DNA from: Eubacteriales bacterium
Lineage (GTDB): Bacteria > Bacillota > Clostridia > Oscillospirales > CAG-272
Assembly (NCBI GenBank): GCA_045542275.1
Contig: JAZQKP010000004.1
Location: 6,391 to 70,390, forward strand
Direction: 5' to 3'
DNA length: 64,000 nucleotides
The position numbers were made by a program, and so were the translations under genes. This document shows, piece after piece, positions 13,547 to 63,983 of this stretch (the stretch's first letter is position 1; each line of letters opens with the position of its first letter). The notes under the pieces are model-generated. The model searched no databases and was not told the DNA's origin. It was given only the letters and a program-made list of their open reading frames with translations.

Positions 13547-13580
13547 TAAAAAGACCTGCTCAGATGAGCAGGTCTTTTTA
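13547..13580. terminator. bidirectional intrinsic terminator
   Basis: Perfect 15-bp inverted repeat TAAAAAGACCTGCTC/GAGCAGGTCTTTTTA. Confidence 0.85.
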
Positions 13581-13591
13581 TGGTCGCAATG
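13581..13591 (-). repeat. degenerate copy of the tRNA-Pro 3' end (att-like)
   Basis: TGGTCGCAATG vs TGGTCGGAATG at 15646-15656 (10/11), same orientation; both abut a terminator. Confidence 0.45.
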
Positions 13592-13897
13592 AGCCAACCC
13601 CGGTTGAACACCATTACAAAAGTGAGATAAACCCTTATGGCAAAAGGAGTTTTGCAACTTTTTTGTGAGCCGAAAAATTTGAGAAAAATGTAAAATCGCA
13701 TATCAAAAGACCTCGAAAATATCACTTTCTGAAATTTGGGATTTTTATTTTAAGGGGTATAAAAGAGCAGAACTTTTTAGACAGTATCTGAGAAAATTTA
13801 AAAAATCTATTGACATTCACCTAAGGTTAAGGTTTATAATTATAATGTCATAAGCACGATATGACGGAAATTTGCATATGATGAAAGGGAAATTATT

Positions 13898-15217
13898 ATG
13901 AAGTTAACATTTATGGGTGCGGGCAGCACCGTATTTTCTAAAAACGTATTAGGTGACACAATGCTGTGCGATGCGTTCCACGATGTAGAAATTGCGCTTT
14001 ACGATATAGATGAAAAAAGACTTGACGAGTCATATCTTCTTATTTCAAAAATGAATGACTCTATAAACGAGGGACGTGCAACAATCAAAAAGTATTTAGG
14101 TGTTTCTGAAAGAAAGGATGCGTTAAGAAAGGCAGATTTTGTCGTTAACGCAATTCAAGTAGGGCTTTATGACCCTTGCACAATTATAGATTTTGAAATT
14201 CCAAAAAAGTACGGACTTCGCCAAACAATAGGTGACACTCTCGGTATCGGCGGCATTTTCCGTGCCCTTCGTACCATTCACGTGCTTAAGGACTTTGCAA
14301 AGGATATTGAAGAGGTTTGTCCAAATGCGTGGTTCTTAAACTACACAAACCCAATGGCTATGCTCACAGGCTATATGCAAAGATATACCAAGGTAAAGAC
14401 CGTAGGACTTTGCCATAGTGTACAGAGTTGTTCTAAAGATTTGCTTAATGGTTTGAATATGAGCGACAAATTAGAGGGCAGGCGCGAGAAAATAGCCGGT
14501 ATTAACCATATGGCTTGGCTTCTTGAAATTAAGGACAAGGACGGAAATGACCTATATCCTGAAATTAAAAAGCGCGCAAAAGAGAAAAATTCAAAAGAAA
14601 AGCATGGCGATATGGTGCGTTACGACTATATTGATAAGCTTGGTTATTATTGCACAGAATCGAGTGAGCATAACGCAGAATACAACCCATTTTACATAAA
14701 GCCAAACAGAAACGATTTAATAGAAAAATTCAACATTCCTCTTGATGAATATCCACGTCGCTGTATAAATCAAATTAATGGCTGGCAAAAGCAATATGAG
14801 GATCTAATGTCAGGCGGTAAAATTGAGCATACTCGTTCAAAGGAATATGCATCATACATTATGGAGGCAATTTATACAAACAAGCCATACAAAATCGGTG
14901 GTAATGTTATTAACAACGGTGTTATTACAAACCTACCGTATGATGCTTGCGTTGAGGTGCCTTGCTTAGTAGACGGAGAGGGAATACACCCTACCTTTGT
15001 TGGAGAGCTTCCTCTCCAGCTTGCTGCCATGAATTCGTCAAACATCTATGCTCAAATGCTTACAATTGAGGCAGCCCACACAATGGATAAGCAAAAGATT
15101 TATCAAGCAGCAATGATGGATCCCCACACAGGAGCAGAGCTTTCAACAGATGAAATCATAGCACTTTGTGACGAGCTCTTTGAAGCACACGAAAAAGCAG
15201 GATATCCAATATTTTAA
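13898..15217 (+). CDS. melA: GH4 NAD+-dependent alpha-galactosidase
   Basis: MGAGS NAD-binding start, QTIGDTLG, NYTNP, GLCHSV, GINH, ESSEH. Confidence 0.88.
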   Translation: MKLTFMGAGSTVFSKNVLGDTMLCDAFHDVEIALYDIDEKRLDESYLLISKMNDSINEGRATIKKYLGVSERKDALRKADFVVNAIQVGLYDPCTIIDFEIPKKYGLRQTIGDTLGIGGIFRALRTIHVLKDFAKDIEEVCPNAWFLNYTNPMAMLTGYMQRYTKVKTVGLCHSVQSCSKDLLNGLNMSDKLEGRREKIAGINHMAWLLEIKDKDGNDLYPEIKKRAKEKNSKEKHGDMVRYDYIDKLGYYCTESSEHNAEYNPFYIKPNRNDLIEKFNIPLDEYPRRCINQINGWQKQYEDLMSGGKIEHTRSKEYASYIMEAIYTNKPYKIGGNVINNGVITNLPYDACVEVPCLVDGEGIHPTFVGELPLQLAAMNSSNIYAQMLTIEAAHTMDKQKIYQAAMMDPHTGAELSTDEIIALCDELFEAHEKAGYPIF

Positions 15218-15237
15218 GTTTGATACAAAACAATAGA

Positions 15238-15273
15238 TAAAGGGTCGCATTTCTTGTGAAATGCGACCCTTAA
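15238..15273. terminator. terminator hairpin after melA
   Basis: AGGGTCGCATTTC-ttgt-GAAATGCGACCCT perfect 13-bp stem. Confidence 0.75.
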
Positions 15274-15310
15274 ATCTTAATATAAACAAAAATAATTAAG
15301 TCATCATCAC

Positions 15311-15436
15311 GGTCCCGTGTGTCGGGCTTAGTCATAGGTGGTCTGAATGACAAGAAGCATCGCAACAAGTTGCTCGTAACACTTCGCAGCCTCTGATGTG
15401 CAAGCACCTCTCGGCTTTGCTCGCTAGGTGAACCGA
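15311..15436 (-). other. tRNA-like T-arm/acceptor 3' half split by a 100-nt hairpin-rich insert
   Basis: Removing 15329-15428 gives minus-strand TCGG-TTCAAGC-CCGAC-ACACGGG-A-CC. Confidence 0.35.
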
Positions 15437-15440
15437 AAAA

Positions 15441-15612
15441 ATCAATGGCAGAGCCATTGCATATCATCAAAACAGAGTTTTGCATATCATCAAATTCGCA
15501 GAATTTGTATATCATCATTGCGAAAGAAGATGCAACCTACGGTTGATGATATACGCCTACGGCGATGATATACACACTAAAGTGTGATGATATACCATCG
15601 CTTTCGCAATGG
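15441..15612. repeat. REP-like element: alternating mini-hairpins and ATATCAT/ATGATAT tags in inverted arrangement
   Basis: Three ATATCATC on the left, three GATGATATAC on the right, each adjoining a 4-7 bp hairpin; CATTGCGAAAG/CTTTCGCAATG 11-bp inverted repeat. Confidence 0.8.
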
Positions 15613-15614
15613 AT

Positions 15615-15646
15615 AAAAAACGACAAGCTCTCGCTTGTCGTTTTTT
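15615..15646 (-). terminator. tRNA-Pro terminator
   Basis: AAAAAACGACAAGC-tctc-GCTTGTCGTTTTTT. Confidence 0.85.
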
Positions 15647-15721
15647 GGTCGGAATGGCAGGGTTCGAACCTGCGACATCATGGTCCCAAACCATGCGCGC
15701 TACCAACTGCGCTACATCCCG
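15646..15721 (-). tRNA. tRNA-Pro (UGG)
   Basis: 76-nt cloverleaf CGGGATG...CATGG-TTTGGGA-CCATG...GGTTCGAACC...CCGACCA. Confidence 0.97.
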
Positions 15722-15739
15722 AAGCTTTATTGCCTTGAT

Positions 15740-15768
15740 ATTATATCAAATAAAAATCTGTTTGTCAA
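15740..15768 (-). promoter_or_regulatory. sigma-A promoter of tRNA-Pro
   Basis: Perfect TTGACA-17bp-TATAAT on the minus strand. Confidence 0.85.
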
Positions 15769-15791
15769 TACTCGATATTGAAAAATATATA

Positions 15792-15820
15792 AAAAGAGTG
15801 TCGCAGTGCGACACTCTTTT
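15792..15820 (-). terminator. terminator after the GH2 gene
   Basis: AAAAGAGTGTCGCA-g-TGCGACACTCTTTT. Confidence 0.8.
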
Positions 15821-15825
15821 ACTAT

Positions 15826-18060
15826 TTATTCAGGCTTTTTGATTTGGTTAAGTTGAGCATTAAGACCGAGAAGGTCATCCTTTGTAAGATTTACACCCAT
15901 AGTGCCAATCATACCGGAGAGGCGAAGAACTGTAAAGCCACCCAGCATCTGCATCATGGCATCGTTCATTTCAAAGCCACCCATAACCTCGTCACCCTTC
16001 TTAGGCATCATTTTTGCAAACATACCCATAAAGAGTGCAGCGCCTGCCTGTGTCTTAAGGATATCGCCGATCTTGTCATTAAGAGAGAAGTATCCCTCAA
16101 CCTCAGTAATATCAAACCAGTTAAGGACTGCGTTCTTTTCCTTAAGGCGATATTCCTCATTGAATACCTCAACCTTACAAATCTTGCTTTCATCCTTGCA
16201 TTCTCCTGCAACAGCCACAAGTGTGGTTTCACCTACATTGGGAACATCAAAGTAGAAGAAATGGTCGGACGCAGACTTTTTACCAAGGCTTACGCCGTTT
16301 GCAAAAAGCTCAACCTCGGGGAGATTTGAGTAAACAGTAACCTTTGTTACGTCCTCAACTCTGTCAACATAGCGCTTTCCGCAAAGATGAACAAAGGGAT
16401 CGGTAGTAAGCCAAGCCTTGTATGCGTAGAAGGAATCCTTCTTATACTTTCTGTCAAAGGTTACAAGACCCTTATGGTTCTGTCCGTTTTCACCGCCCTC
16501 GCTACGTGCGTCAGCGCCGAAGTCGAACATATTCCATACATGTGTTGCCCACATATATTTTCTTGTAAAGAGCTGTCTTATAAGCTCCTCATGGTAGTAA
16601 GCCTGATATTCCTCGGTATAGTCACCCTGTGTAGGCTTGGAGGTATGCCAGTTAAGAGCCTCACAGCCATACTCGGAGCAGCCGATAGGAATATTTGGCC
16701 AACGCTTATGGAAATTATCAAACCAAGGTCCATTCATAGAGGTGTCGCCACCGTACCAACCAAAATAGTGGTTGTAGGATACAAGGTCTGGAATCTGAAT
16801 GTAAGGGCTTTCAATGCTGCAGGGAGAAACTACTGCGATAGTAGTAGGACGTGTCTTGTCCATCTTGTGACACATATCGTTAAGGATACGGTGGTTTTCA
16901 AGAAGGTCAGGGTCCTCGTCACCCTTCATGGAGATTTCATTTGAAAGTCCCCATACTGCAATAGATGGGTGATTGTAGTTTTGTACTATAAGCTCTGTCA
17001 TCTGTGAGATTGTATTCTCACGTGCAGTAGGCATATGCTGTGAAATATAAGGAATTTCAGCCCAGATTACAAGACCGCGCTCATCGCAAAGATCGTAGAA
17101 ATACTGGTCATGCTGATAGTGAGCAAGACGAATTGTAGTAGCGCCCACCTCACAGATAAGGTCAATATCCTCTCTGTGATGCTCAGGAAGAAGAGCATTA
17201 CCAAAGCCCCATCTGTCCTGATGACGGGATACACCTCTTAAGGGGTATTCCTCACCGTTCAAAATAAATCCGTTTTCAGGGTCAATATAGTAGCTACGGC
17301 AGCCGAAGCGTGTGGAAACTACATCAATTACATCATTACCGGAAAGAAGCTCTGCCTTAGCTACATAAAGGTAAGGATCCTTTCTTCCGTGCCACTTATG
17401 TACATTCTTTATTACAAGGTTAACCTCAGTATCCTCAACAGCTGTGCAAACTGCGTTTCCGTCAGCATCTGTAATTGTATAACGAACGGATAAGCCGTCC
17501 TTCTTATTTGTTACAAAGGTTTTTACATTAACTACTGCATCGTTATCCTTAATTTCGGGTGTAACCTGAATACCGGGGCCACCGAAATAATCAAGGTCAA
17601 AGTGGGATTCGCTTACACAAATAATATTTACATCACGGTAAAGTCCACCGTAGAAGGTAAAGTCAGCTACCTGAGGATAAACTGTATTGTTGGGAGAGTT
17701 GTCGACTGCGATTACAAAAAGGTTTTCACGCACAAGGGAGTCTGTAATGTCAACACGCCATGTGGAATATCCACCGTCGTGATGTGTAAGCTTGTTGCCG
17801 TTTACATAAACATCTGCAGAGGAGTTTGCGCCCTTGATTTCTAGGTAGTAGCGATCTGCTGTGGGAAGATCCATTTTGTCAAGCTTCTTTGCATAGTAGC
17901 CTGTTCCACGGTAGTAGTCATTACCGCCGTCCTGACCGTCAATTGTGTTCCAGGAATGGGGAAGATTTACAAAATCCCATTTGGAGCAAATCTCTGTCGG
18001 CACCTCTGTTGCCATCTTTGTAAATGCCCATTTAGTATTGAAATTTATAATTTTTCTCAT
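15826..18060 (-). CDS. GH2 beta-glucuronidase (probable FMN-binding clostridial type)
   Basis: GH2 motifs (YGGLYR, RLAHY, SNE acid/base, SEYG nucleophile), YFGWY and NHKG (NxK) GUS signature; adjacent to uxuAB-eda-kdgK. Confidence 0.85.
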   Translation of the reverse strand: MRKIINFNTKWAFTKMATEVPTEICSKWDFVNLPHSWNTIDGQDGGNDYYRGTGYYAKKLDKMDLPTADRYYLEIKGANSSADVYVNGNKLTHHDGGYSTWRVDITDSLVRENLFVIAVDNSPNNTVYPQVADFTFYGGLYRDVNIICVSESHFDLDYFGGPGIQVTPEIKDNDAVVNVKTFVTNKKDGLSVRYTITDADGNAVCTAVEDTEVNLVIKNVHKWHGRKDPYLYVAKAELLSGNDVIDVVSTRFGCRSYYIDPENGFILNGEEYPLRGVSRHQDRWGFGNALLPEHHREDIDLICEVGATTIRLAHYQHDQYFYDLCDERGLVIWAEIPYISQHMPTARENTISQMTELIVQNYNHPSIAVWGLSNEISMKGDEDPDLLENHRILNDMCHKMDKTRPTTIAVVSPCSIESPYIQIPDLVSYNHYFGWYGGDTSMNGPWFDNFHKRWPNIPIGCSEYGCEALNWHTSKPTQGDYTEEYQAYYHEELIRQLFTRKYMWATHVWNMFDFGADARSEGGENGQNHKGLVTFDRKYKKDSFYAYKAWLTTDPFVHLCGKRYVDRVEDVTKVTVYSNLPEVELFANGVSLGKKSASDHFFYFDVPNVGETTLVAVAGECKDESKICKVEVFNEEYRLKEKNAVLNWFDITEVEGYFSLNDKIGDILKTQAGAALFMGMFAKMMPKKGDEVMGGFEMNDAMMQMLGGFTVLRLSGMIGTMGVNLTKDDLLGLNAQLNQIKKPE

Positions 18061-18076
18061 ATAATCTCCTTTTCTT

Positions 18077-18117
18077 AAAAAATGTCCGACAGGACCTAGG
18101 AAGCTCTGTCGGACATT
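18077..18117 (-). terminator. hairpin/terminator between the permease and the GH2 gene
   Basis: 12-bp stem AATGTCCGACAG/CTGTCGGACATT followed by a T run on the minus strand. Confidence 0.55.
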
Positions 18118-18131
18118 GTAAGGTCAATTAA

Positions 18132-19616
18132 TTATTCGGAAACTGCTACGTCCTGCTTGTTACGTCCGAGATCCTCGTTCATCTTAGCAAGAGTCTTTTT
18201 ATCAACATTGTAGATGAATGCAAGGCTTACGAACTGAAGCAATGCGCTGAAGAGGTAAAGTCCTGCAACGAGCCAGCACATATTGGATGCTGTCTGAAGT
18301 GACTGACCCTCTGTACCAAGCTTTTCAACATATCCGAGGGCGCCCATAAGGAGAAGAACGATGGAGGGACCAACGCCCTGAGCAAGCTTTCTGAAGAAGG
18401 AATGGAGTGAATATACTGTACCTTCCTCTCTCTTACCTGTCTTCCACTCATTGTAGTCAATAGCATCAGCCATAAGAGCCCAGGATACACATGTGTAGAT
18501 ACCCATACCGATACCGAATACGCAGAGGGCAAACATATATAAGCCGAGAGCTGCTGTCTTATTGGGGATAGCAGGGAATACGAACATGAGAAGTCCGCCT
18601 GCAACTGAAACTAAGGAGCCAACTGCAGATGCTTCCTTCTTGCCCCACTTACCAACAATCTTTTTGATGAAGGGCATGAAGATAAACATGGGAAGAAAAC
18701 CGATTACAGAAACTACACCGGAAAGGGAAGCCATACCGAAGTATGTAGCAAACATAATTGTTGTTGCTGTAGCTGCGGAGTTCATACCGAGGAACATTGC
18801 CATAGCTGCAAGTGTTGCACCGATAGCGGGACGGTTCTTCATAAAGTTACGGAAGGCTAAAAGGATATTGAACTTTTCACCCTCGTTTACCTTAACAGAC
18901 TGCTCGTCTACACGGATTGTAATCTTCTTTATCATAAACATAAATGCGATAAAGCCGAGAACACCCATTATGATAGCAGCGAAGAATACTCTTTCGCCAA
19001 GAAGTGTTTCAACCTGTACGCCTGTTTCGGGGTTGATAACGGGATCACCGTTTGCGTCAACCTCTTTACGCCAGATAAGCATAGGAAGTATCATCATAGG
19101 AACCATGTTACCTACCATGGAACCGACAGAACGCCATGTGGAAAGTTGAGATCTTTCACCGGGATCCTCGGATACGAGAGAGAGCATAGAGCCATATGGA
19201 ACGTTAGCTACTGTGTAGCAAGCATCCCAGATAACGTAACCGAGAATGAAGAGAATAGACTTTAAAACTATACCAGCATTAGGAACAGGAATGAAGCAGA
19301 GTGCACCTGCTACTGTAAGTCCGATAGCGCCGATAAAAATATAGGTCTTGAATTTGCCCATTTTGTAATTTCTTCTGTCTGCATCAATTAATGAGCCGAT
19401 AAGGGGGTCATTAATGGCATCCCAGATCTGTACTACGAGAAGGAGTGCGGCAAGAAGTCCGGTTTCCATCATCATAAATACAAGCCAGAAGGTCTGGATT
19501 GTGTTCTTGAGTGAGAAGCTCATGTTACAGCCAAAGTCTCCGGCGGCATATGCGACCTTATCGATCATACCAAACTTAGGCTTGCCATTTGCATCAAGCT
19601 GTCTTTGCTTTGCCAT
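18132..19616 (-). CDS. GPH-family (MFS) glycoside:cation symporter, probable glucuronide permease
   Basis: YAAGDFG, WDAINDPLIG, NVPYGSM, ADAIDYNEWKTGKREEG; about 12 TM segments. Confidence 0.9.
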   Translation of the reverse strand: MAKQRQLDANGKPKFGMIDKVAYAAGDFGCNMSFSLKNTIQTFWLVFMMMETGLLAALLLVVQIWDAINDPLIGSLIDADRRNYKMGKFKTYIFIGAIGLTVAGALCFIPVPNAGIVLKSILFILGYVIWDACYTVANVPYGSMLSLVSEDPGERSQLSTWRSVGSMVGNMVPMMILPMLIWRKEVDANGDPVINPETGVQVETLLGERVFFAAIIMGVLGFIAFMFMIKKITIRVDEQSVKVNEGEKFNILLAFRNFMKNRPAIGATLAAMAMFLGMNSAATATTIMFATYFGMASLSGVVSVIGFLPMFIFMPFIKKIVGKWGKKEASAVGSLVSVAGGLLMFVFPAIPNKTAALGLYMFALCVFGIGMGIYTCVSWALMADAIDYNEWKTGKREEGTVYSLHSFFRKLAQGVGPSIVLLLMGALGYVEKLGTEGQSLQTASNMCWLVAGLYLFSALLQFVSLAFIYNVDKKTLAKMNEDLGRNKQDVAVSE

Positions 19617-19835
19617 AAAAATTCCTCTTTCTAAATTTATTTTGGTTCATTCGGGATTATCCCGACAGGGTTTACCATTATTAGTATAACTTATATTCTA
19701 TAAAAATGAGAGTAATTTTTTTATGAAAAGTTGTATTTTTTTAATTATTGGAGAGAAAACTATGTTGTAATTGCACAAAAACTGTGATATAATTATTAAA
19801 AACTTATCAAATTTTACCATTGAGGAGGAATGCAC

Positions 19836-21059
19836 ATGGATTATAAAAATGAGCTTGAGCTGCTGTGTGATACACTTAAAAAGTGCCATGTGCAGTTTCA
19901 TATTGTAAATGCCAACGATGAATTAAGCCGTAGTGTTTATAAGGGAATAGATATAGTTTTCGGTAAAATTCTCGGTAATACGGGTACGGTAAGTGGACTT
20001 CTTGGCGAAATGGAGTCTCGTACGGTATATAAGGTAACAGACGAATTAAAGCTTTGCTATCTGTATATCAAGTTAGCTGACAGTAATGACGAAATATTTG
20101 TTTTAGGTCCATATATGCCGGCATCACTAACCCCAAGACAGCTTCTTGAAATATGTGAAAAAAGTGGTGTTTCTCTAAAAAACCAAAGGTACGTAGAGGA
20201 GTTTTTCCTTTCTATTCCGGTTATTGATGATGGAAACCCCTTGCTGTCATTGCTAAATGCTTTTCTTGAAAGAATATGGGGTCAGCCTTCCTTTTCGGTG
20301 GTAGATGCTTCAAGGGATTTTTCATTTGCTCCCTCGCCTATTAACGAAGCTAACCTTAGCGACGAATTTGATGATGTGCTTCTTAACATGAAATCCATGG
20401 AGCTAAGATACAGCTACGAAAATGAAATGATGCAAGCGATAAGCTTGGGACAGATACAAAGGACGAATCAGCTTTTATCCATGTCATCTGAGCAAGTATT
20501 TGAAAAACGTTCTCAGGACCCCTTGCGCAATATGAAAAATTATTGTATAATAATGAATACATTATCCCGTAAAGCTGCTGAAAATGGCAAGGTGCATCCT
20601 ATGTATCTTGATAGAGTATCCTCGGATTTTGCCACAAAAATTGAACAGCTTCCCACTGTGGAGGATGCACAAATATTAATGAAGGATATGTTTAAGGCAT
20701 ATTGCCGACTTGTAAGAAAGCATTCAATGAAGGACTATTCACCTATAGTGCAAAAGGCGATTGTGCTGATAGAATCGGATCTTTCGGCAAATCTTTCCTT
20801 AAGCTCCATCAGCGCAAGTCAAAGTGTCAGCGCAGGATATCTTTCCACCGTATTCAAAAATGAAACGGGCAAGACTGTTACCGAATACATTCGCGAAAAG
20901 AGGATGAAGCATGCAGCCCACCTTTTAAGCACCACATTTTTGCAGATACAAACCGTTGCACTTCACTGTGGAATTATGGATGTGCAGTATTTTTCAAAAA
21001 CCTTTAAAAAATATATGGGTATGACGCCTAAGGAATACAGAGACAGTACAAAGGAGTAA
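19836..21059 (+). CDS. AraC-family transcriptional regulator
   Basis: C-terminal AraC HTH (YLSTVFKNETG...YFSKTFKKYMGMTPKEYR); start moved to the ATG spaced 7 nt from GAGGAGG. Confidence 0.9.
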   Translation: MDYKNELELLCDTLKKCHVQFHIVNANDELSRSVYKGIDIVFGKILGNTGTVSGLLGEMESRTVYKVTDELKLCYLYIKLADSNDEIFVLGPYMPASLTPRQLLEICEKSGVSLKNQRYVEEFFLSIPVIDDGNPLLSLLNAFLERIWGQPSFSVVDASRDFSFAPSPINEANLSDEFDDVLLNMKSMELRYSYENEMMQAISLGQIQRTNQLLSMSSEQVFEKRSQDPLRNMKNYCIIMNTLSRKAAENGKVHPMYLDRVSSDFATKIEQLPTVEDAQILMKDMFKAYCRLVRKHSMKDYSPIVQKAIVLIESDLSANLSLSSISASQSVSAGYLSTVFKNETGKTVTEYIREKRMKHAAHLLSTTFLQIQTVALHCGIMDVQYFSKTFKKYMGMTPKEYRDSTKE

Positions 21060-21130
21060 GGCGAATTATCCACACGTATCGGCACTTTTTAATTAAAATA
21101 ATATTGATATAAATTTTTAGGAGGATTACT

Positions 21131-22183: not shown

Positions 22184-22216
22184 TATAAAATTAGTGTTAT
22201 AATAAGGAGAGAACAT

Positions 22217-23068: not shown

Positions 23069-23098
23069 TTTGTAAATTAATAATAAAGGAGATTTATT

Positions 23099-24761: not shown

Positions 24762-24777
24762 ATAATTTAATATAATT

Positions 24778-24803
24778 AAGGAGAGAGAAATCTCTCCTTT
24801 TTT
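24778..24803 (+). terminator. terminator of the uxu-kdg operon
   Basis: AAGGAGAGA-gaaa-TCTCTCCTT followed by a T tail. Confidence 0.8.
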
Positions 24804-24843
24804 ATTTCCCGAGAAATATTTTGAATAAAAATTCAAAAAGATG

Positions 24844-24872: not shown

Positions 24873-24924
24873 TCAAATTGTTGAGAGGTCAACGATTAAA
24901 ATTGATATTTTTGGAGACAGTATA

Positions 24925-26987: not shown

Positions 26988-27150
26988 TGAAGATTGCAGA
27001 AGATGGCTATGCCGACCGAAGGAGCGAAACTCTCAGGTGATTTTAAATCGGGAACTGCAATTTGATAGCACTCCGGAGAATCTCACCACGAGTGAGTGCC
27101 GAAGGGGCAAGACGGATATTCCGTTAATCTCTCAGGCAAAAGGACAGAGT
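26988..27150 (+). ncRNA. tandem glycine riboswitch
   Basis: Two CCGAAGG...CTCTCAGG aptamers, second with GGAGA and AAAAGGACAGAG; lies upstream of an AGCS symporter. Confidence 0.9.
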
Positions 27151-27202
27151 TTTACAATTACCTTTCCTATTTTATTTTTAGGGAATATAATTATAAAATT
27201 TT

Positions 27203-32623: not shown

Positions 32624-32777
32624 GTTTTTTATGTATGAATACGTTTGCAATATTATTCAGCAAATGTGAATATTTTTTCGAAGGTGTCTGGAACAGCAAG
32701 GTTTGTGTGCGTAAGTGTATGTGCGTTACTCAGCGCAATAATAAAGCAAAAAAATTTAGAAAAGTTTTTTATACCTA

Positions 32778-32806
32778 TTGACTTGACAGGGCCATTGTGC
32801 TATGAT
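32778..32806 (+). promoter_or_regulatory. sigma-A promoter of ilvE
   Basis: TTGACT-17bp-TATGAT with extended TG. Confidence 0.6.
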
Positions 32807-32873
32807 TTAGTGTATAATTATTAGTTGAATTTGGATAGCGAAGAAATTTTATTCGCTACATCAAGGAGAAAGA

Positions 32874-53829: not shown

Positions 53830-53830
53830 A

Positions 53831-55278: not shown

Positions 55279-55310
55279 CAAAAAATCGCACCACGGTGCG
55301 ATTTTTTGTT
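55277..55310. terminator. bidirectional terminator
   Basis: AACAAAAAATCGCACC-ac-GGTGCGATTTTTTGTT. Confidence 0.85.
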
Positions 55311-55319
55311 GTAATGATA

Positions 55320-55766: not shown

Positions 55767-55802
55767 AAAACAACCTCCTAATTTATTATTTAGAGAATCG
55801 GT

Positions 55803-56678: not shown

Positions 56679-57613
56679 AAAATTCCTGTATCAAATAATG
56701 TTTTCTTAAAGTTTTTATCGCTGTTCACTATACGGATAGTGCTTTTTACCAGCTCCTCACCGCCCTTGGCCTGTGCAAGAAGCTTTTCTTCATTGAAATT
56801 ACGGCGCATTTCAAGTATATCCTCATAATAGGGAGTATCCTTTGCATATTTCCAGAAGCAATCGCTGTAATTTATACCGTCCTGCTGCCAGGGCTTAGCA
56901 AAATTATTGTAGTGAACTATCATAGGATTTTCGTAGCTTCCGTCAATTGCCATCTTGTCCCAGCCCTCATCGACATAGAGAACTCTGTCCTTGCAGATTA
57001 CGTTTAGGTAGTCCTGGTCGGGACAAACGGTTTCAAAGCGATAGGTCTTGAAAAGATGCTCAAATTTACCCTCAAGGTCAAATTTACGCATTTCATCAAG
57101 GTTCATAAGCATCATGCCGGAGTTGAAATAGTTTGTATAGGGATAAATTCCACAGCCAAGCTCTGCATAATCACGGAATTCCTGTCTTGAGGCAATAACT
57201 GCATCAGGCACACCACCAAGAAGCTTGTCCCCAAGCTCAATTTTATAAAGCTTAGCCACGTCCTCAAGAATTACCATATCAGCATCAAGATAGATAGCCT
57301 TTTTAAATTCGGGGAACATACCGGGAATAAATATTCTGAAGTAGATAGACACGGTATAATAATCACGGAGATTAAGCTTTTTACCGTAGGTTACAAGCTT
57401 TTCGGAAACGTCAATAAAGCAGATGCTTACATTTTCCTTTTCCATAGCTGTTATTATTTTCATATTTTTAATGCTCATCTTTGAATGGAGAACAAACACA
57501 AAATAGTTGTTTTCCTTCGATGAATTCTCAATAAAAGATTTTATAGCAACCCCAAGAAAGGGAATATAGTTATCATCACAAGAGAAGAATACAGGTACGT
57601 TAGTCTTACTCAC
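56675..57613 (-). CDS. glycosyltransferase family 8
   Basis: DDNY, YLDAD, YFNSG, PDQDYLN, HY...KPW. Confidence 0.9.
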   Translation of the reverse strand: MSKTNVPVFFSCDDNYIPFLGVAIKSFIENSSKENNYFVFVLHSKMSIKNMKIITAMEKENVSICFIDVSEKLVTYGKKLNLRDYYTVSIYFRIFIPGMFPEFKKAIYLDADMVILEDVAKLYKIELGDKLLGGVPDAVIASRQEFRDYAELGCGIYPYTNYFNSGMMLMNLDEMRKFDLEGKFEHLFKTYRFETVCPDQDYLNVICKDRVLYVDEGWDKMAIDGSYENPMIVHYNNFAKPWQQDGINYSDCFWKYAKDTPYYEDILEMRRNFNEEKLLAQAKGGEELVKSTIRIVNSDKNFKKTLFDTGIL

Positions 57614-58439
57614 TTGCTACCTCCTTAAATTCCTTATAGGCTTCCTTCTTTTCCTTGAAAAGCTCTATAATGCTGTCATATTTATGTGTAAGCTCAGGCA
57701 CCTTGTCGGTATGCCAGGGCTTAATATTTCTTGTGTGAAAATATGGGAACCAGATAATAGTCTTTGCAAAATGCTGAACTACTGTCTCATCCTTAAAATG
57801 CTTCTGCTCATTAAACTTAGTGTCAATTATCATTTTTCCCACAGCCAAACGGTTTAAGGCAGTCTGGTCGGGAAGAAACACCTTCTTTTCGTTAAGAAGC
57901 TTTATTGATTTTTCAAAAAGCCCTGTTTCCCTTATTCTGTCAAGATTCAAAAGAAGCACGCCTGCATTTATGTATCTTGCACCAAGGAACCACTTGCCGT
58001 AGTAGTCAAGGCTTCCTGCCAGCTCATTATCTCCCAAATCAATATCGTAAAGCTCCTTAATATCCCTTGCCACAATCGTGTCTGCATCAAGGTAAATCAC
58101 CTTGCTTGGAAGAAAATCAATCTTGTCAGCAAAAAGACGCAAAAACGTGTAGGGAGTGTAGGAGGTTACTGCGTTTGGCGAATTCAAAAGAGTAGCCTTA
58201 TAAAGCTCACCGATATCAACAAGAGTAGCCGAGCTTTCTGGATTTTTCTCCTTGCAAAGCTTGTCTATGTAGTCTGCTTGATTTTTTGTAAGAGGCAAAA
58301 ACCTTTCGTTTTGCTCAGTTAAATCCATAGTGAACAAATAGATGGAAACAGGCTCACTGCTGCTTTCGATAACCGATAAAGCAGATATTAGTATTCCGTC
58401 AAATATTCCATAATTTCCCGCATAAATTATCGGTATCAT
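57606..58439 (-). CDS. glycosyltransferase family 8
   Basis: RLF, YLDAD, YINAGVLL, PDQTALN, KPW. Confidence 0.88.
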   Translation of the reverse strand: MIPIIYAGNYGIFDGILISALSVIESSSEPVSIYLFTMDLTEQNERFLPLTKNQADYIDKLCKEKNPESSATLVDIGELYKATLLNSPNAVTSYTPYTFLRLFADKIDFLPSKVIYLDADTIVARDIKELYDIDLGDNELAGSLDYYGKWFLGARYINAGVLLLNLDRIRETGLFEKSIKLLNEKKVFLPDQTALNRLAVGKMIIDTKFNEQKHFKDETVVQHFAKTIIWFPYFHTRNIKPWHTDKVPELTHKYDSIIELFKEKKEAYKEFKEVASE

Positions 58440-58448
58440 AGCTTCTCC

Positions 58449-59216
58449 TTACTTCTTTATGTACTTAATTCTTTCGTAGGTGCTGCTTTCACTACGCTTA
58501 ACCATAGCTTCATATACAGCATCTCTCAACCTTTTCTGTGCTTCCTTAGGCTTCAATTCCTTGTTGGGATAAAAGGGGCCGTCGATATATACTGTCGCCT
58601 TGGGAACCTTTCTCAGTCTTCTTTTCGAATATGTAACCGTAGCTGCAAACACAGGTGCATTATGCTTTATAGGATAAGCAAAGGATGTGTCTGCAAAATC
58701 ACGAATCTTGGTGTAATAGGGCCAGATGTGCGCCTCGGGATAAATACAAATTGCGCCACCCTCATTTATTCTTGTGCTGATAGCATCAAGAAACCCACGG
58801 TAGCCATCAATGGAGGTGGGTGTTGGAATTGCACCGCATCGCATTATAAATCCCTTTGTTCCCTTGGTTGATATATTGTCAGGATGTACAACCATATATG
58901 TTTTCTTAGGGAAGGAGTATACGTTTGGTATAAATGCATCTCCTGCCATAAGGGTGTGGTTTGAATAAACAAAGTATCCCTGCTTCTTCATTTCCTTAAG
59001 AGATTTTTTGTTTACAACCTTAAGGCCAAATTTAAGCTTACACCAAAGGAAAGCGATGGGAGTCATTATAACCCTGTATACAAGAAAGGTGGATAGGGAA
59101 TGGAAAAAGCCCTTTTTTATATACTTGAAGCTTTTATCAACCTTAACGGTATTTTTTGTGATTCCGGAAAACTCATTGTTCCTTTCATCATCGTAATATA
59201 TCACCTTTTGCTTCAT
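58449..59216 (-). CDS. PlsC-like acyltransferase (divergent)
   Basis: SNHTLMAGD, IYPEAHIWPY. Confidence 0.8.
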   Translation of the reverse strand: MKQKVIYYDDERNNEFSGITKNTVKVDKSFKYIKKGFFHSLSTFLVYRVIMTPIAFLWCKLKFGLKVVNKKSLKEMKKQGYFVYSNHTLMAGDAFIPNVYSFPKKTYMVVHPDNISTKGTKGFIMRCGAIPTPTSIDGYRGFLDAISTRINEGGAICIYPEAHIWPYYTKIRDFADTSFAYPIKHNAPVFAATVTYSKRRLRKVPKATVYIDGPFYPNKELKPKEAQKRLRDAVYEAMVKRSESSTYERIKYIKK

Positions 59217-59317
59217 GGCTGTACCCCCTTTCCTTTACTATAATAAATAATAACAAGAAAGCACTAAAATTAAAAGGACATACCTATATTTTCCACTCTA
59301 AAATTTTTTGAGAGAAT

Positions 59318-59457
59318 TCTCATAACTGTAGAAAACGGACTCTACAAAAGTGAGAACCCTTGATTTTATTGGGAAAAACCCTTGATTTTATTAAATAAAT
59401 AATATATAATGAAACCAGTATAAAGTGAAATTTTTTGAAAATTCTCACATTCTGAGA
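59318..59457. promoter_or_regulatory. divergent control region with three candidate operators and the XRE promoter
   Basis: TCTCA/TCTAC-N5-TGAGA/GTAGA at 59318, 59341, 59443; TTGATT-17bp-TATAAT (59382-59410). Confidence 0.55.
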
Positions 59458-59474
59458 GAGGAAAACAAGGAATT

Positions 59475-60062
59475 ATGAAGGATATTAAGCCTATTATAGC
59501 TGCTAATCTTGTTACCTTGAGAAAGGAAAAGGGGCTTACTCAGGCAGAGCTTGCTGAGAAGCTAAGCTACTCTGACAAGGCAATTTCCCGTTGGGAAAGG
59601 GGAGATACTCTACCTGATATAAGCGTGCTTTATGAAATATGTAATTACTATAATATTACCCTTGATATGCTGGTCAGCGATGAGCCGATTATAAGGGAGG
59701 AGGAAAAGGTTTATACAAAAAATTCTCTGGCTTATAAGATTTGGGCAACTATGCTTTCCGTAACTTTTGTATGGCTTGCAGCCACCATTACCTTTATATA
59801 TTCCAATGTAAAGGGTGAGGGCTACAATTTCTGGATGGCATTTGTATGGGCTGTACCCCTTACTTGTATTGTGCTTAAGATTGCAGGACGAAATATTTTC
59901 AACACAGTTCTGAAAATCATTACCGATTCTGTGCTTATATGGTCAATTCTTGCATCATTTTACTTACAGCTGTTGCCTTACAACATCTGGATGATATTCC
60001 TGCTTGGCATTCCCGTACAGACAATAATATTCCTTTGGATAAGAATGAAAAAATACAGATAA
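59475..60062 (+). CDS. XRE-family HTH regulator with C-terminal membrane domain
   Basis: LTQAELAEKL.YSDKAISRWERG..LPD, then about 4 TM helices. Confidence 0.88.
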   Translation: MKDIKPIIAANLVTLRKEKGLTQAELAEKLSYSDKAISRWERGDTLPDISVLYEICNYYNITLDMLVSDEPIIREEEKVYTKNSLAYKIWATMLSVTFVWLAATITFIYSNVKGEGYNFWMAFVWAVPLTCIVLKIAGRNIFNTVLKIITDSVLIWSILASFYLQLLPYNIWMIFLLGIPVQTIIFLWIRMKKYR

Positions 60063-60063
60063 T

Positions 60064-60094
60064 AAAAAAGTCGACCACGTGGTCGACTTTTTTT
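60064..60094. terminator. bidirectional terminator
   Basis: AAAAAAGTCGACCACGTGGTCGACTTTTTT palindrome. Confidence 0.85.
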
Positions 60095-60099
60095 ATGGA

Positions 60100-60786
60100 T
60101 TAAAGCTCTTCAAGCATTTCTTCGGTTGAAAGTCTGATTTCAAGATTACCGTTTCTGCATCTTAATTCGTCAATCATTGATTTTTCGGACACACCACTCT
60201 TAAAATCTACAAGATATTTAAGCTTAAATAAGCTACCAAGGTTAGAGGTTTTTACAGATACAAGCTCATGGCGCTTTGTGTATTTATTAAGAATTTCATC
60301 AAATACCTCATCATAGCTTAAATCCTCGGGGATTGTAATAAGAAGCGCCTTTGTATTTTCCTTTACGCTTCCAATTTTAATTGCTTTAAAGGCTACTGTA
60401 ATCAGCGCAAGAAGAATTGCAAAGAGAATTGAGTAGGCAAGATATCCCATACCGCTTATAAGACCTGCACCCATTGCAATAAAGATTGTGCAGATTTCCT
60501 TTGCGCTACCGGGGGCAGAACGGAATCTTACAAGGCTGAACGCACCTGCAACCGCAACACCCGTACCGATATTACCGTTTACCATCATAATAACAGCACA
60601 AACTACGGCAGGTAAAATACATATGGTCATTAAAAAGCTTTTTGTATATCTGCTTTTGTATGTATATGCAGCAGCGATTGCCACACCTGCTATAATGGAG
60701 GCGAGAATACAGAGAAGAAAATCACCCACAGAAATTACAGCCTCACCGGGCTGACTGAAAATACCGCTGAATATTTTTTCTAACAT
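60100..60786 (-). CDS. DUF4956 membrane protein
   Basis: GNIGTGVAVAGAFSLVRFRSAPG, IPED..Y, RCRNGNL; overlaps the VTC stop. Confidence 0.85.
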   Translation of the reverse strand: MLEKIFSGIFSQPGEAVISVGDFLLCILASIIAGVAIAAAYTYKSRYTKSFLMTICILPAVVCAVIMMVNGNIGTGVAVAGAFSLVRFRSAPGSAKEICTIFIAMGAGLISGMGYLAYSILFAILLALITVAFKAIKIGSVKENTKALLITIPEDLSYDEVFDEILNKYTKRHELVSVKTSNLGSLFKLKYLVDFKSGVSEKSMIDELRCRNGNLEIRLSTEEMLEEL

Positions 60787-61493
60787 TTTATAAGCTCCTT
60801 CTTTTTGCTCTGGCACACATCAATATAGGCTGTGCCGTATTTTGAAAATGAGATTTTGTAAATTTTGTTTTCGCTTAGAAAAGAGGTAAACCAAAGGGGA
60901 AGTGCATAGGCGGTTTTAACCTCCATAACTATTATTCCGTCATCAAGTATTCGCTTGCCGAAAACCCCGCTTTCAAGAGAAAGGGAATCCTCTCGGTAGA
61001 GAATATTTCTGTCAAAGGTGATTCTGAAGGTTTCGTCGGTTTTAGAGTAAAACGCCTCACGCTCATAGGAAATTACCATGCTTGGCATAAGGTCCTTGTA
61101 ATAGGAAATAAAGTAGTCTATCTCCCTTGATATCTGATTGTCGGGTAAAGAGCTTTTGCCGGCAATATAGTCAACTGCCTCCTTCTCCTTAAGTCGAACT
61201 CGCCTTTTGTAAACCACACCCTTAAACTTCTTTTTGAGCTCAAGAAATACGGGTGTATCAGCCGTTGTTTCTCCGTAGCTGCGAAGTCTGATTTTTTCCT
61301 TATAAACAGGCTTATCAATGGAGTTTCTAATTAAAAGGTGGGAGGGAGTGTCAAAATATATGTTTCTTATAACGCTTTTTCCGTACGCATCATCAGTCAT
61401 ATATTCATAGAACATTGACTTAAGCTTGGCACATTGCTCCTCAGTAATGAGAAACTTAAGCTCATACCGCTTAAACACGGTTTGATTTTTCAT
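60780..61493 (-). CDS. VTC-domain (polyphosphate polymerase-like, TTM fold) protein
   Basis: RYELKF, YFDT, KEKIRLRSY, FLELKKK, YEREA, RITFD, MEVK, SKY. Confidence 0.88.
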   Translation of the reverse strand: MKNQTVFKRYELKFLITEEQCAKLKSMFYEYMTDDAYGKSVIRNIYFDTPSHLLIRNSIDKPVYKEKIRLRSYGETTADTPVFLELKKKFKGVVYKRRVRLKEKEAVDYIAGKSSLPDNQISREIDYFISYYKDLMPSMVISYEREAFYSKTDETFRITFDRNILYREDSLSLESGVFGKRILDDGIIVMEVKTAYALPLWFTSFLSENKIYKISFSKYGTAYIDVCQSKKKELIKC

Positions 61494-61578
61494 TTTATCC
61501 CTCCTTTTCTTAATTTTAACATAATAAACTTAAATGTGCAATAAAAATCAAAAATAATTTCGTATGTCGCCCTTTAAC

Positions 61579-61607
61579 TTGACATCTATTTTAAAAAATG
61601 GTACAAT
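61579..61607 (+). promoter_or_regulatory. sigma-A promoter
   Basis: TTGACA-17bp-TACAAT with extended TG. Confidence 0.7.
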
Positions 61608-61632
61608 AAAGAGGATAACGGAGGATATAACT

Positions 61633-62019
61633 ATGGAAGCTGGAAAAGTATTTACAATAGAAGCAAAGGTTACAGAAAATGATACCGCTAAGGTGTTTGG
61701 CAGCGGTGAGCTTGAGGTTCTTGCCACACCTAAAATGATTGCGCTTATGGAGATGGCATCCTACAAGTGTATTGCAGATGAGCTGGAGGAGGGCGCTACC
61801 ACAGTAGGCACCTACCTTGATGTTAAGCATCTTGCCGCTACCCCTGTCGGAATGGGCGTAAGGGTGGAAAGCACACTTACATCATCTGAGGGACGTAAGC
61901 TTACATTCAGCGTTAAGGCATACGATGAAAGTGGCATTATCGGTGAGGGCACACACGAAAGATTTATCGTGTACAGCGAAAAGTTTACAGCTAAAACCTA
62001 TGCAAAATTGGACAAATAA
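61633..62019 (+). CDS. hotdog thioesterase (FlK-like)
   Basis: GSG...VLATP.MIALME, TVG....V.HLAATPVG, GEGTHER. Confidence 0.88.
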   Translation: MEAGKVFTIEAKVTENDTAKVFGSGELEVLATPKMIALMEMASYKCIADELEEGATTVGTYLDVKHLAATPVGMGVRVESTLTSSEGRKLTFSVKAYDESGIIGEGTHERFIVYSEKFTAKTYAKLDK

Positions 62020-62024
62020 AAGGA

Positions 62025-62050
62025 AACGGTGCTGAAATTTCAGCACCGTT
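62025..62050. terminator. terminator hairpin between convergent genes
   Basis: AACGGTGCTGAAATTTCAGCACCGTT palindrome. Confidence 0.75.
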
Positions 62051-62055
62051 CTTAT

Positions 62056-62556
62056 TTAAAATGATTTTACATCCTTATTTTTATAGGTGGTAAATCTGAT
62101 TACATATCCGTTAGTTTCAATAGGGTCGCTAACATATACGCATTCCATATTTTCCATTTTATCAAGGTTTTCGTAAAATACCTCAGCGCTTCCGTCTGCC
62201 TCAACCTTTGTAATAAGGTATTCGTCGCAGTAGGGAAGCATGGTCTTATAGAACATAGCTCCGCCTATAACGTAAATTTCGTCAGAATCATATTTTTTAA
62301 GCTCACAAAACAGCTCATCAAGTGTGTGTACAACTGTACAATCATCACGTTCAACCTCTTTAGGTGCAAGAACAATGTTTGTTCTGTTCTTAAGAGGCTT
62401 GCTGCCGGGGAAGGAAAGCAAGGTGTTGTAACCCATACAGCAAACCTTACCCATAGTGGTTTTTCTGAAGAATGCCATATCCTCGGGAATGGAGAAAAGA
62501 AGATCGTTCTTTTTGCCGATACCCCATTTATTATCAACTGCTACAATAGTTTTCAT
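62056..62556 (-). CDS. folA: dihydrofolate reductase
   Basis: IVAVD...GIG, PEDM.FFR, PL.NR.NIVL, VIGG; overlaps thyA. Confidence 0.93.
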   Translation of the reverse strand: MKTIVAVDNKWGIGKKNDLLFSIPEDMAFFRKTTMGKVCCMGYNTLLSFPGSKPLKNRTNIVLAPKEVERDDCTVVHTLDELFCELKKYDSDEIYVIGGAMFYKTMLPYCDEYLITKVEADGSAEVFYENLDKMENMECVYVSDPIETNGYVIRFTTYKNKDVKSF

Positions 62557-63386
62557 CAGATAGCCACCTCAATCTTGTCCTCAAGCTTTGTATACTCATA
62601 GCCCTCAAGCTTGAAATCGTCTACTGTGAAATCGTAGAAATTCTTGATTTCGGGATTTATCCACACCTTAGGTGCAGGATACTGAGGATTTTTAAGAATC
62701 TTTTCAACAATGGGAACGTGTCTGTCATAAATATGTGCATCTGCAATTACGTGTACAAGCTCACCGGCCTTAAGTCCGGATACCTGTGCAAGCATCATAA
62801 GAAGAATAGCGTATTGTACAACGTTCCAGTTGTTAGCTGTAAGCACGTCGTTGCTGCGCTGATTAAGAATGCCGTTTAGTGTGTCACCCGAAACATTAAA
62901 GGTCATTGAGTATGCGCAGGGGTAAAGGTTCATTTCGGAAAGGTCCTGATGAACGTAAATATTTGTCATAATTCTTCTGGAGGCGGGGTTGTGCTTAAGG
63001 TCGTAGAGAACTCTGTCAACCTGGTCCATCATACCCTCCTTATACTTGTGCTTTACGCCAAGCTGATAGCCGTAAGCCTTACCGATAGAGCCGTTTTCGT
63101 CAGCCCAGCTATCCCAGATATGAGAATTAAGGTCATTTATATTGTTGGATTTCTTCTGCCATATCCAAAGAATTTCGTCAATAGCTGACTTAAAGGCAGT
63201 ACGGCGAAGAGTGATAATAGGAAATTCCTCCTGAAGATTGTATCTGTTTACAATGCAGAATTTCTTTACAGTATGTGCGGGAGTACCGTCCTCCCAATGG
63301 GGACGTACATTCTGGTCGGTGTCCCAATGGCCGTTATCAATTATTTCACGGCAGGTTTTAATAAACAATTCATCAGCTCTGCTCAT
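62556..63386 (-). CDS. thyA: thymidylate synthase
   Basis: IWDSWAD, IGKAYG, SRRI, LYPC, QRSND, HIYDRH. Confidence 0.96.
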   Translation of the reverse strand: MSRADELFIKTCREIIDNGHWDTDQNVRPHWEDGTPAHTVKKFCIVNRYNLQEEFPIITLRRTAFKSAIDEILWIWQKKSNNINDLNSHIWDSWADENGSIGKAYGYQLGVKHKYKEGMMDQVDRVLYDLKHNPASRRIMTNIYVHQDLSEMNLYPCAYSMTFNVSGDTLNGILNQRSNDVLTANNWNVVQYAILLMMLAQVSGLKAGELVHVIADAHIYDRHVPIVEKILKNPQYPAPKVWINPEIKNFYDFTVDDFKLEGYEYTKLEDKIEVAI

Positions 63387-63419
63387 AATAACTCCTTAGC
63401 TTATTAGCATTATCAATTA

Positions 63420-63448
63420 ATTATATCAAAATCATAAGATATTTTCAA
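63420..63448 (-). promoter_or_regulatory. sigma-A promoter of thyA-folA
   Basis: TTGAAA-17bp-TATAAT on the minus strand. Confidence 0.65.
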
Positions 63449-63555
63449 TAGAAAAAATCAAGTTTTAAAATATAAGGAAAAAATTTAGCAAAAAAGAGCA
63501 GAAAACTACGGAAAAATTACCCTAAAAAATATTTCCAAAAAATTAAAAAAAGGTA

Positions 63556-63584
63556 TTGACAAGAAAAATAAGTTATGATATAAT
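63556..63584 (+). promoter_or_regulatory. strong sigma-A promoter of the tRNA operon
   Basis: TTGACA-17bp-TATAAT with extended TG and upstream A-tracts. Confidence 0.85.
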
Positions 63585-63612
63585 AGTCAAGCATTAAGCA
63601 TGAGTTAGTTAT

Positions 63613-63688
63613 GGCGGAATAGCTCAGAGGCTAGAGCATCCGGTTCATACCCGGCAGGTCATAGGTTCAAATCCCATTTCCGCCACCA
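63613..63688 (+). tRNA. tRNA-Met (CAU), elongator type
   Basis: 76 nt, G1-C72 paired, CCGG-TTCATAC-CCGG anticodon arm, GGTTCAAATCC, CCA end. Confidence 0.93.
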
Positions 63689-63693
63689 CTCAT

Positions 63694-63768
63694 GGCCCGT
63701 TGGTCAAGCGGCTAAGACACGGCCCTTTCACGGCTGTAACATGGGTTCGATTCCCGTACGGGTCACCA
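63694..63768 (+). tRNA. tRNA-Glu (UUC)
   Basis: 75 nt GGCCCGTTGGTCAAG...CTTTCAC...GGTTCGATTCC...CACCA. Confidence 0.97.
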
Positions 63769-63814
63769 GCAAAGCGAAAAGGACACTCAAACGAGTGTCC
63801 TTTTTGTTTTGCTG
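63767..63814 (+). terminator. tRNA operon terminator within a 22-bp stem
   Basis: CAGCAAAGCGAAAAGGACACTC-aaac-GAGTGTCCTTTTTGTTTTGCTG (two G.U pairs). Confidence 0.85.
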
Positions 63815-63983
63815 ACGGTCCATACGGACCGAATCGACCCATCTTCAAAATGCAACCGCATTTTGAATTGGGTTCGCATTTTCGACCAAGACCGTTGTCT
63901 GCTTGCAAGGCAAAAGGTCGGGCGAAAATAGCTCCGCAAGGAGCCTTCCTGCTTGCTTTTGTATCGCAAAAGTACGGGTTACA
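63811..63983. repeat. structured element containing antisense and split sense copies of the tRNA-Glu 3' half
   Basis: 63811-63842 resembles the reverse complement of 63741-63770; 63869-63880 and 63972-63982 resemble the T-arm and acceptor end. Confidence 0.6.

Follow-up and report, generated by a model that had tools for sequence, protein, structure and literature searches.

The stretch of DNA considered here (the window) covers 64,000 nucleotides (nt) of a Eubacteriales bacterium (GenBank assembly GCA_045542275.1, contig JAZQKP010000004.1, positions 6,391 to 70,390), and the subject is what has accumulated behind two of its transfer RNA (tRNA) genes, namely gene cassettes and gene-less hairpin units. 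The genome holding the window, whose assembly is 95.6% complete, is called G000; other G numbers designate relatives, L numbers fetched loci, and C numbers contigs. The first locus is anchored by a tRNA-Pro(TGG) gene on the minus strand (15646-15721), called, like the other tRNAs of the window, by ARAGORN and Rfam. Its T-loop box stands 24 nt from the CCA end, and its 3' half is, we infer, an attachment site of the attB type. On the same strand follow the tRNA terminator hairpin (15615-15645), directly after it a 175-nt module of ATCATC repeats (15440-15614), and then a degenerate split copy of the tRNA 3' half (15339-15435), the end of a unit that resembles the tRNA-linked repeats (TLRs) of Escherichia coli and has better-kept homologs in relatives. 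This copy is made of a T-arm start (15427-15435), an insert of about 70 nt, and a tail (15339-15356) identical to the tRNA at 13 of 18 bases, as counted by eye; in a genome-wide test of cognate against non-cognate tRNAs, the tail scores 18, for a non-cognate maximum of 17.

Beyond the split copy lies a cassette of 1.76 kb (13581-15338). It begins with a left arm, a P'-type hairpin (15294-15338, minus strand) whose T-loop box is degenerate in the window copy, followed by a terminator (15240-15271, minus strand) at the 3' end of the cargo gene. The latter (13898-15217, plus strand, thus convergent) encodes a 439-amino acid (aa) alpha-galactosidase of glycoside hydrolase (GH) family 4, with close copies elsewhere in the tRNA-Pro arrays of relatives. 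On the far side come a conserved sub-terminal right arm of about 150 bp, E1 (13610-13760, minus strand), which is present in 26 of the 50 genomes of the genus and stands beside differing genes in relatives, and the right half-site, a 29-nt P arm (13581-13609, minus strand) with its T-loop box 29 nt from the CCA end and a 6-nt identity to the tRNA end. The two half-sites have only these last 6 tRNA bases in common. The terminator past the right half-site (13547-13580, minus strand) is of a type found after tRNA-Pro in relatives, and would be a displaced tRNA terminator. By itself, the 29-nt motif is not rare in the genome (five occurrences, against zero to five in 10 shuffles); it carries weight through where it lies and through its homology. 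The same arm types are also carried by an integrase-bearing element. The first-pass annotation, made from the sequence alone, had taken both fragments flanking the gene for split tRNA copies; the one at 13581-13609 is instead a recombination half-site with a terminator. The gene it called atypical is only mildly so, with a GC content of 39.5% and a GC content at third codon positions (GC3) of 0.366, the lowest of 23 genes tested.

Upstream of the GH4 gene, a perfect TTGACA/TATAAT promoter has a 19-bp spacer with a dyad (13810-13840, plus strand). A 19-bp spacing is typical for MerR-type promoters; it is odd for a galactosidase, and is perhaps a leftover of other cargo. Just outside the array, a small open reading frame (ORF; 13264-13519, plus strand) consists of DNA that is found again at other places in relatives (G005:C3, G017:C3, and G020:C21).

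The second locus, on the plus strand, comprises tRNA-Met(CAT) (63613-63688) and tRNA-Glu(TTC) (63694-63768), the anchor of the second array. The tRNA-Glu terminator hairpin (63769-63812) is followed by an imperfect repeat, in inverted orientation, of the tRNA-Glu 3' end (63813-63842), then by the first body of a TLR-like unit (63844-63983), made of a hairpin and a hairpin-split direct copy of the tRNA 3' half, the split copy proper occupying 63869-63983. A second split copy starts at 63984-64000 and runs past the window to 64068, with a near-perfect 18-nt tRNA tail. It is followed by a P' arm (64069-64087) and by a cassette of 3.6 kb that encodes an ATP-binding cassette (ABC) transporter and a helix-turn-helix (HTH) protein; the far side of this cassette is marked by a 29-nt P-like arm (67682-67710) and a terminator of the tRNA-Glu type. 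The Glu tail reaches a score of 30 in the cognate/non-cognate test, where non-cognate tRNAs attain at most 20. By eye, the integrase elements of tRNA-Met and of tRNA-Ser have left ends that resemble the DNA after the Glu unit. Elsewhere in G000 (C28:1627-1830), an orphan 29-nt arm of the tRNA-Glu type with a hairpin unit is probably the distal part of the tRNA-Glu array from another contig.

Split copies past the terminators had been proposed for both loci, and are clear at Glu and degenerate at Pro. As for the hairpin-rich structure ascribed to both, the Glu region, tRNA included, folds far above shuffles (z of -11), and the Pro unit alone does not, with a z of +1.0 and 169 of 200 shuffles folding as well. 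In the window and five further loci, Rfam gave no gathering-level match except for tRNAs and a glycine riboswitch.

In relatives, 43 tRNA-Pro(TGG) loci and 10 array contigs without a tRNA were mapped. They contain 21 complete cassettes in 18 loci, after removal of a 22nd row whose start was a chance site inside an integrase gene. These cassettes measure 1.4-5.0 kb, and 12 of them hold a single ORF. Their cargo amounts to 45 ORFs in 41 families, none of which matched the serine-integrase profile or the tyrosine-integrase and Rep queries; in the subset scanned, it is rich in glycoside hydrolases (GH2, GH27-like, GH43, and GH63-like), together with regulators, a cation diffusion facilitator (CDF) transporter, and nuclease-like genes. 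The junctions are all of the expected kinds (tRNA/left arm, right arm/terminator, and right arm/left arm), and the tRNA-Glu arrays are built like those of tRNA-Pro. The stacking order varies between loci. For example, the GH4 gene comes first in G000, behind a six-ORF module in G003, and behind a GH43 gene in G011. As the first-pass annotation had supposed, single genes do build up behind tRNAs, in this variable order and between recurring tRNA-end sites, the enzyme probably acting in trans, and the downstream content is not invariant among relatives.

Such cassettes might also be mere relics, that is, decayed remnants derived from large integrative and conjugative elements (ICEs), integrative and mobilizable elements (IMEs) or prophages with a tyrosine or serine integrase, which lost their genes in place and left small, immobile units. 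This is how cis-mobilizable elements (CIMEs) originate (PMC5704250), and the kinship with remnants of known mobile elements is partly real: the alpha-galactosidase cassette has attL/attR-type sites on both flanks (15294-15338 and 13581-13609), and, as in CIMEs and accretion, these sites are kept, integration and transfer genes are missing, and the elements lie in tandem at a tRNA 3' end (PMC5704250). The absence of the enzyme from G000, and the tyrosine-integrase elements found at tRNA-Pro, also suit this explanation. Nevertheless, the same small cassettes (GH43 of 304 aa, a 704-aa gene, and GH4) recur with the same arms at other array positions in other species, the best-matching arms having 77-89% identity along roughly 160-180 bp, and the tyrosine-integrase element L204 at tRNA-Pro differs in its arms and has longer repeats. 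Decay in place is an unlikely origin for the cassettes.

The spacing at the cassette ends was analyzed without a preset value, over 120 of 138 junction sites. Upstream of the CCA end, the T-loop box lies at 24 nt at 38 sites, which are tRNA ends, and at 29 nt at 30 sites, which are cassette right ends, with stray spacings of 16 nt (three sites) and 18 nt (one site); the right ends at tRNA-Glu, read by eye, show the same 29-nt spacing. Downstream of the CCA, inside the left-end hairpin, an inverted box lies at 18 nt (35 sites) or 19 nt (nine sites). In large serine integrases, the zinc-ribbon motif is 5 bp nearer to the centre in attB than in attP (Rutherford et al., PMC3783163), and the two spacings, 29 against 24 nt, correspond to the attB/attP shift of these enzymes. 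Once joined, the cassette site measures 47-48 bp and has inverted outer motifs, with perfect 9-bp inverted ends in one element (G054) and weak ones in the window copy. This is close to the LI/A118 model, in which an attP of about 48 bp carries outer inverted motifs 5 bp further out than attB (PMC3783163); unlike in that model, the motif here is the tRNA T-loop, it is seen on one attB side only, and the spacing is often one base short. Right arms are identical to the host tRNA at positions 71-76, of which 72-76 were fixed by the search pattern. Agreement then falls to 7/15 at position 70, 2/15 at 69, and 1/15 at 68, and is complete again (15/15) at 66.

An exact right-arm pattern, searched over species genomes, gave 23 stretches, 11 of which belong to arrays of Clostridia/Eubacteriales; the other 12, from unrelated taxa, were taken as chance. 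The order-wide search for the left arm was uninformative, 58 of 301 genomes being matched and a reversed control appearing about equally frequent by eye.

The first-pass annotation saw no recombinase near the Pro gene, and this extends to the whole G000 assembly, which has no match to PF00239, PF07508, PF01797 or PF23343. Its only tyrosine recombinase is XerC-like, and was dropped as cassette enzyme: a housekeeping protein, it is single-copy across the genus, with ordinary neighbours. In the genus, a family of about 500-aa proteins with Resolvase, Recombinase, and zinc-ribbon domains occurs in 22 of 50 genomes, in two placements. Some of its genes converge on a tRNA (Glu, Met, Ser, Gln, or Arg) and stand behind a left arm, in many cases with an upstream gene for a rolling-circle Rep (PF23343); others lie just inside a 29-nt right arm. 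A tRNA, a P' arm or a 29-nt arm is found within 1.1 kb of 17 of the 29 loci of this family, against none of the 10 placed loci of other serine recombinases, used as a control. The best NCBIfam match of the integrase is CcrB, at 121 bits for a cut-off of 900.

One sister element, that of G054:C65, extends over 49.9 kb, with a P' arm (52712) at one end and a 29-nt arm (2809) at the other. It starts at a tRNA-Pro(CGG)-like end with a standard left arm, its 29-nt arm is identical to a cassette arm in the tRNA-Pro array of G063, and a 506-aa protein of the family (L106:4825-6345) is encoded 2 kb inside its right end, clustering (96/94) with members whose right arms resemble those of the window.

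Taken together, these sequence comparisons indicate that the 3' ends of tRNA-Pro and tRNA-Glu host stacked, recombinase-less cassettes, probably inserted by a large serine integrase acting in trans from larger sister elements, the hairpin units forming a separate, gene-less layer that is probably not the attachment site. The zinc-ribbon domain of the integrase would read the T-loop box, and the crossover would take place at about tRNA position 71/72, leaving the tRNA intact. The left arm would bring a new terminator, and the old terminator and the older cassettes would be shifted outward, so that arrays would grow from the tRNA side.

Several observations weigh against this proposal. The genomes are kin and the loci were picked by similarity to the window, which means that the rates are not independent counts. 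The integrase family is absent from G000, so that current mobility here is putative, and among the contigs of four public sequencing runs compared with window 12900-16300, none spans the whole stretch, and no excised circle, empty site or corresponding joint was found; one joint (13647-15356), in a single contig with 29 letters on the short side, is not readable. In the joined arms of the window, symmetry holds at just 14 of 53 positions; a P' spacing of 18, the most frequent one, gives a joined site of 47 bp, one base off even symmetry; and no constant box lies on the attB side beyond the tRNA at the mapped junction sites. As for the enzyme, 12 of the 29 family loci have no arm within 1.1 kb, 13 of the 23 control loci could not be placed, and tyrosine integrases do occur at tRNA-Pro in some relatives (L191, L204, and L033). 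Besides the 506-aa integrase, the G054 element encodes two further recombinases, one of the serine and one of the tyrosine type; the pairing of the arms with the 506-aa protein, therefore, rests on the family pattern.

The first-pass annotation had proposed an integron-like explanation, in which the hairpin-split copies fold as single-stranded, attC-like sites used in trans by a tyrosine or HUH enzyme. Units do alternate with cassettes, often directly before a cassette left arm; the tRNA end, terminator, and inverted copy can pair as one long stem in the centroid structure, and the inverted copy is often one T short, as if an extrahelical base were present. The attachment role is nevertheless not supported, since in eight of 40 tRNA-Pro loci a cassette is joined straight to the tRNA with no hairpin unit, and the Pro unit of the window folds no better than shuffles. 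Cassettes have their own promoters and both orientations (31 and 17 of 48 ORFs, as counted before the one row was dropped). The sole tyrosine recombinase of G000 is best matched by XerC (228 bits) and reaches 100 bits for integron integrase, below the cut-off of 265, and neither an integron integrase nor a Y1 nuclease was found in G000. Nor does the serine-integrase spacing of the ends favour the analogy with attC sites and repetitive extragenic palindromic (REP) elements, and the integron-like route appears very improbable. The cassette system is not an integron: it shares with attC arrays variable, mostly single-gene cassettes and, presumably, polar growth, and differs from them by the lack of IntI, the dispensable attC fold, and cassettes with promoters and both orientations.

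Among described systems, the ssrA islands of Dehalococcoides come close. They involve the serine integrase DsiB, a crossover in the T-loop, a 20-bp repeat, and a six-gene module, and they share with the present arrays the tandem arrangement behind a tRNA or tmRNA 3' end, a CcrB-like serine integrase, and many islands without an integration module (PMC3146451). Unlike those islands, the arrays described here have a 6-bp repeat at 71-76, many tRNA targets, a module of integrase and Rep, and mostly single-gene cassettes. Staphylococcal and enterococcal cassette chromosomes (SCC/ECC) similarly use a serine recombinase and sites of about 50 bp at a gene 3' end, with several attR in a row, but target rlmH instead of a tRNA, have paired ccrAB, and are larger (PMC6222049). 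In the CIME review, gene-end (tRNA) integration is linked to tyrosine integrases, and site-specific serine-integrase IMEs are described as disrupting genes (PMC5704250); here, by contrast, a serine integrase would act at tRNA ends without gene disruption. Tycheposons leave partial tRNAs, and a few have serine recombinases (10.1101/2020.12.28.424599); one copy of the Shimadzu phage, which has a serine integrase, is inserted in a tRNA (10.1101/575076). In the literature covered, which includes PMC12884075 and PMC10083194 and consists of main texts with few subscription papers, no account was found of T-loop-reading serine integrases at tRNA 71/72 or of mirror-armed units.

If true, a serine integrase at tRNA ends would depart from the usual rule that such ends belong to tyrosine integrases, and a T-loop-reading enzyme that spares the tRNA could be a useful insertion tool. 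The proposal also offers a testable route for swaps of single carbohydrate-use genes in small-genome gut Clostridia, with the candidate enzyme, site, and crossover named.

The hairpin units are a distinct layer, which fits the tRNA-targeting miniature elements that the first-pass annotation had also envisaged. In the tRNA-Pro survey, 30 gene-less units of 110-435 nt occur in 22 of the 43 loci. Their tails reach the T-loop (17-20 nt, not 6 nt), with no box at 24 or 29 nt, and fit the T-stem variant of the host in 27 of 28 scored cases, as do the inverted arms in all 16 informative ones, kin not being independent here. In a set of 111 terminal tRNA loci, where Pro and Glu are over-represented because of how the loci were fetched, both arms were best matched to their own tRNA at 19, against none of 333 random non-cognate trials; at the remaining loci, 12 had the inverted arm only, 11 the direct arm only, and 69 neither. 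Two units (L039 and L185) carry a foreign tail, which hints at a transfer of blocks from a different tRNA or species. The junction order is compatible with alternating additions of unit and cassette at the tRNA itself.

These units share with the E. coli TLRs, the function of which is mostly unknown, the lack of genes, the position behind tRNA genes and between terminators, and an ending in 18-19 nt of the upstream gene end (PMC8144298), a tail that the Glu unit has apart from one inserted base. Unlike the E. coli TLRs, they have no Rfam match, an inverted tRNA-end copy, exchangeable hairpin bodies, and an alternation with cassettes; in the text of PMC8144298, the term "inverted" is absent. 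The units supply many natural variants for the old question of what TLRs are and how they arise.

The units could be genes for small RNAs, read through from the tRNA and cut at the duplicated tail, the inverted arm and the tail forming a CCA-ended stem. Such read-through and cutting has been shown for E. coli rrA/rrB/rrF, and the 18-19-nt tail is the hallmark of TLRs (PMC8144298). That the arms follow the host tRNA variant and that folding is strong at Glu is in keeping with this. On the other hand, bodies are mosaic and vary between loci and strains, many loci have no unit, and one body is found mostly within non-tRNA palindromes in distant Clostridia. Of 33 distant copies of this body, six lie behind a tRNA or tmRNA, with a cognate inverted arm in five and a cognate direct arm in four, and most of the others seem, by eye, embedded in other palindromes. 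A small-RNA role, which would be compatible with insertion of the cassettes by a serine integrase, is possible but somewhat doubtful.

Alternatively, the units could be parasites resembling REP sequences or miniature inverted-repeat transposable elements (MITEs), spread by a HUH nuclease (Y1 or Rep) into hairpin loops, with the tRNA copies as repair by-products. A single 75-90-nt body does recur at six isotypes of tRNA (Arg, Trp, Met, Leu, Pro, and Ser), flanked by their arms, and inside other palindromes, another body breaks a tRNA-Ser-like copy at the D-loop, and the integrase elements carry a HUH-type Rep (PF23343). This is opposed by the lack of Y1 in G000 and by the flanks of six Y1 loci, in the three of five carriers tested that have Y1 genes, none of which contains unit sequence; moreover, IS200-type insertion is not known to make a target duplication. 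Parasitic spreading of this kind is rather unlikely, and its specific form with REPs or REPINs and a REP-associated tyrosine transposase (RAYT) was rejected on the same Y1 results. The possibility that a reverse transcriptase makes the 18-nt tails was also rejected, PF00078 being found in none of five carriers.

With less support than for the cassettes, it may be supposed that units are added at the tRNA by duplication of the stretch that reaches from its T-loop to its end (17-20 nt). The inverted copy would come from fold-back synthesis at the terminator, and REP-like hairpin modules would be inserted in the loop. Among the papers listed on tandem inversion duplication and on REP-like repeats behind clostridial tRNAs, none dealt with these units. 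No enzyme emerged for them, and their putative origin is the stranger part of the findings. A much broader conception is improbable, though conceivable: the units would be a mobile class without protein, recopying their arms, one inverted and one direct, from whichever tRNA, so that one body reaches many isotypes, and together with T-loop-reading serine integrases they would form an integron-like platform, shared across the lineage, on which genes for glycoside hydrolases and for defence are shuffled at the majority of tRNA ends in gut Clostridia.

Related observations were made beside the units. The shared hairpin body has 15 copies in G356 (L332, L339, and L344-L358), most of which sit inside a REP-like palindrome at a distance from tRNAs. 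The tRNA-Ser-like copy broken at the D-loop lies in G000 (C7, about 32650-32830, minus strand), and the module of about 105 nt that breaks it is shared with tRNA-Leu and tRNA-Ser units. The ATCATC module of the Pro locus, of which G000 has three copies, each behind a tRNA, begins right after the terminators of many tRNA and tmRNA genes, and is a third, tRNA-promiscuous miniature element.

Others concern the integrases. A "distal" integrase group at tRNA-Glu (L125-L132) has no clear 29-nt arm at its end, and its place in the tree is unsure; in five species (G016, G022, G009, G001, and G005), these loci combine a near-identical serine integrase and left arm with differing cargo of defence-like appearance. 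A conserved, structured stretch of about 150 nt, lying between the tRNA and the 3' end of the integrase gene, is found in the left ends L134, L136, and L097, and in G000 (C4:70500-70700); it is a candidate origin of transfer (oriT), origin or small RNA, with no gathering-level Rfam match. Directly behind tRNA-Gln(CTG) in G000 (C2:25125-25924), an IS3-like rve gene is accompanied by a left hairpin with T-loop-like boxes and by a motif like the cassette right arm in inverted orientation. As a cassette enzyme it was dropped, none being carried by the mapped cassettes or arm-bounded elements, with no genus-wide search made.

Finally, four-helix-bundle genes (TIGR02436-like) follow tRNA-Trp, -Tyr, -Met, and -Thr, with short-repeat arrays in front of each gene and eight copies in G000 (loci at C2:27-176, C44:17439-17771, C23:1-177, and C35:60831-61187), and the window itself contains a glycine riboswitch aptamer at 27063-27157 on the plus strand.

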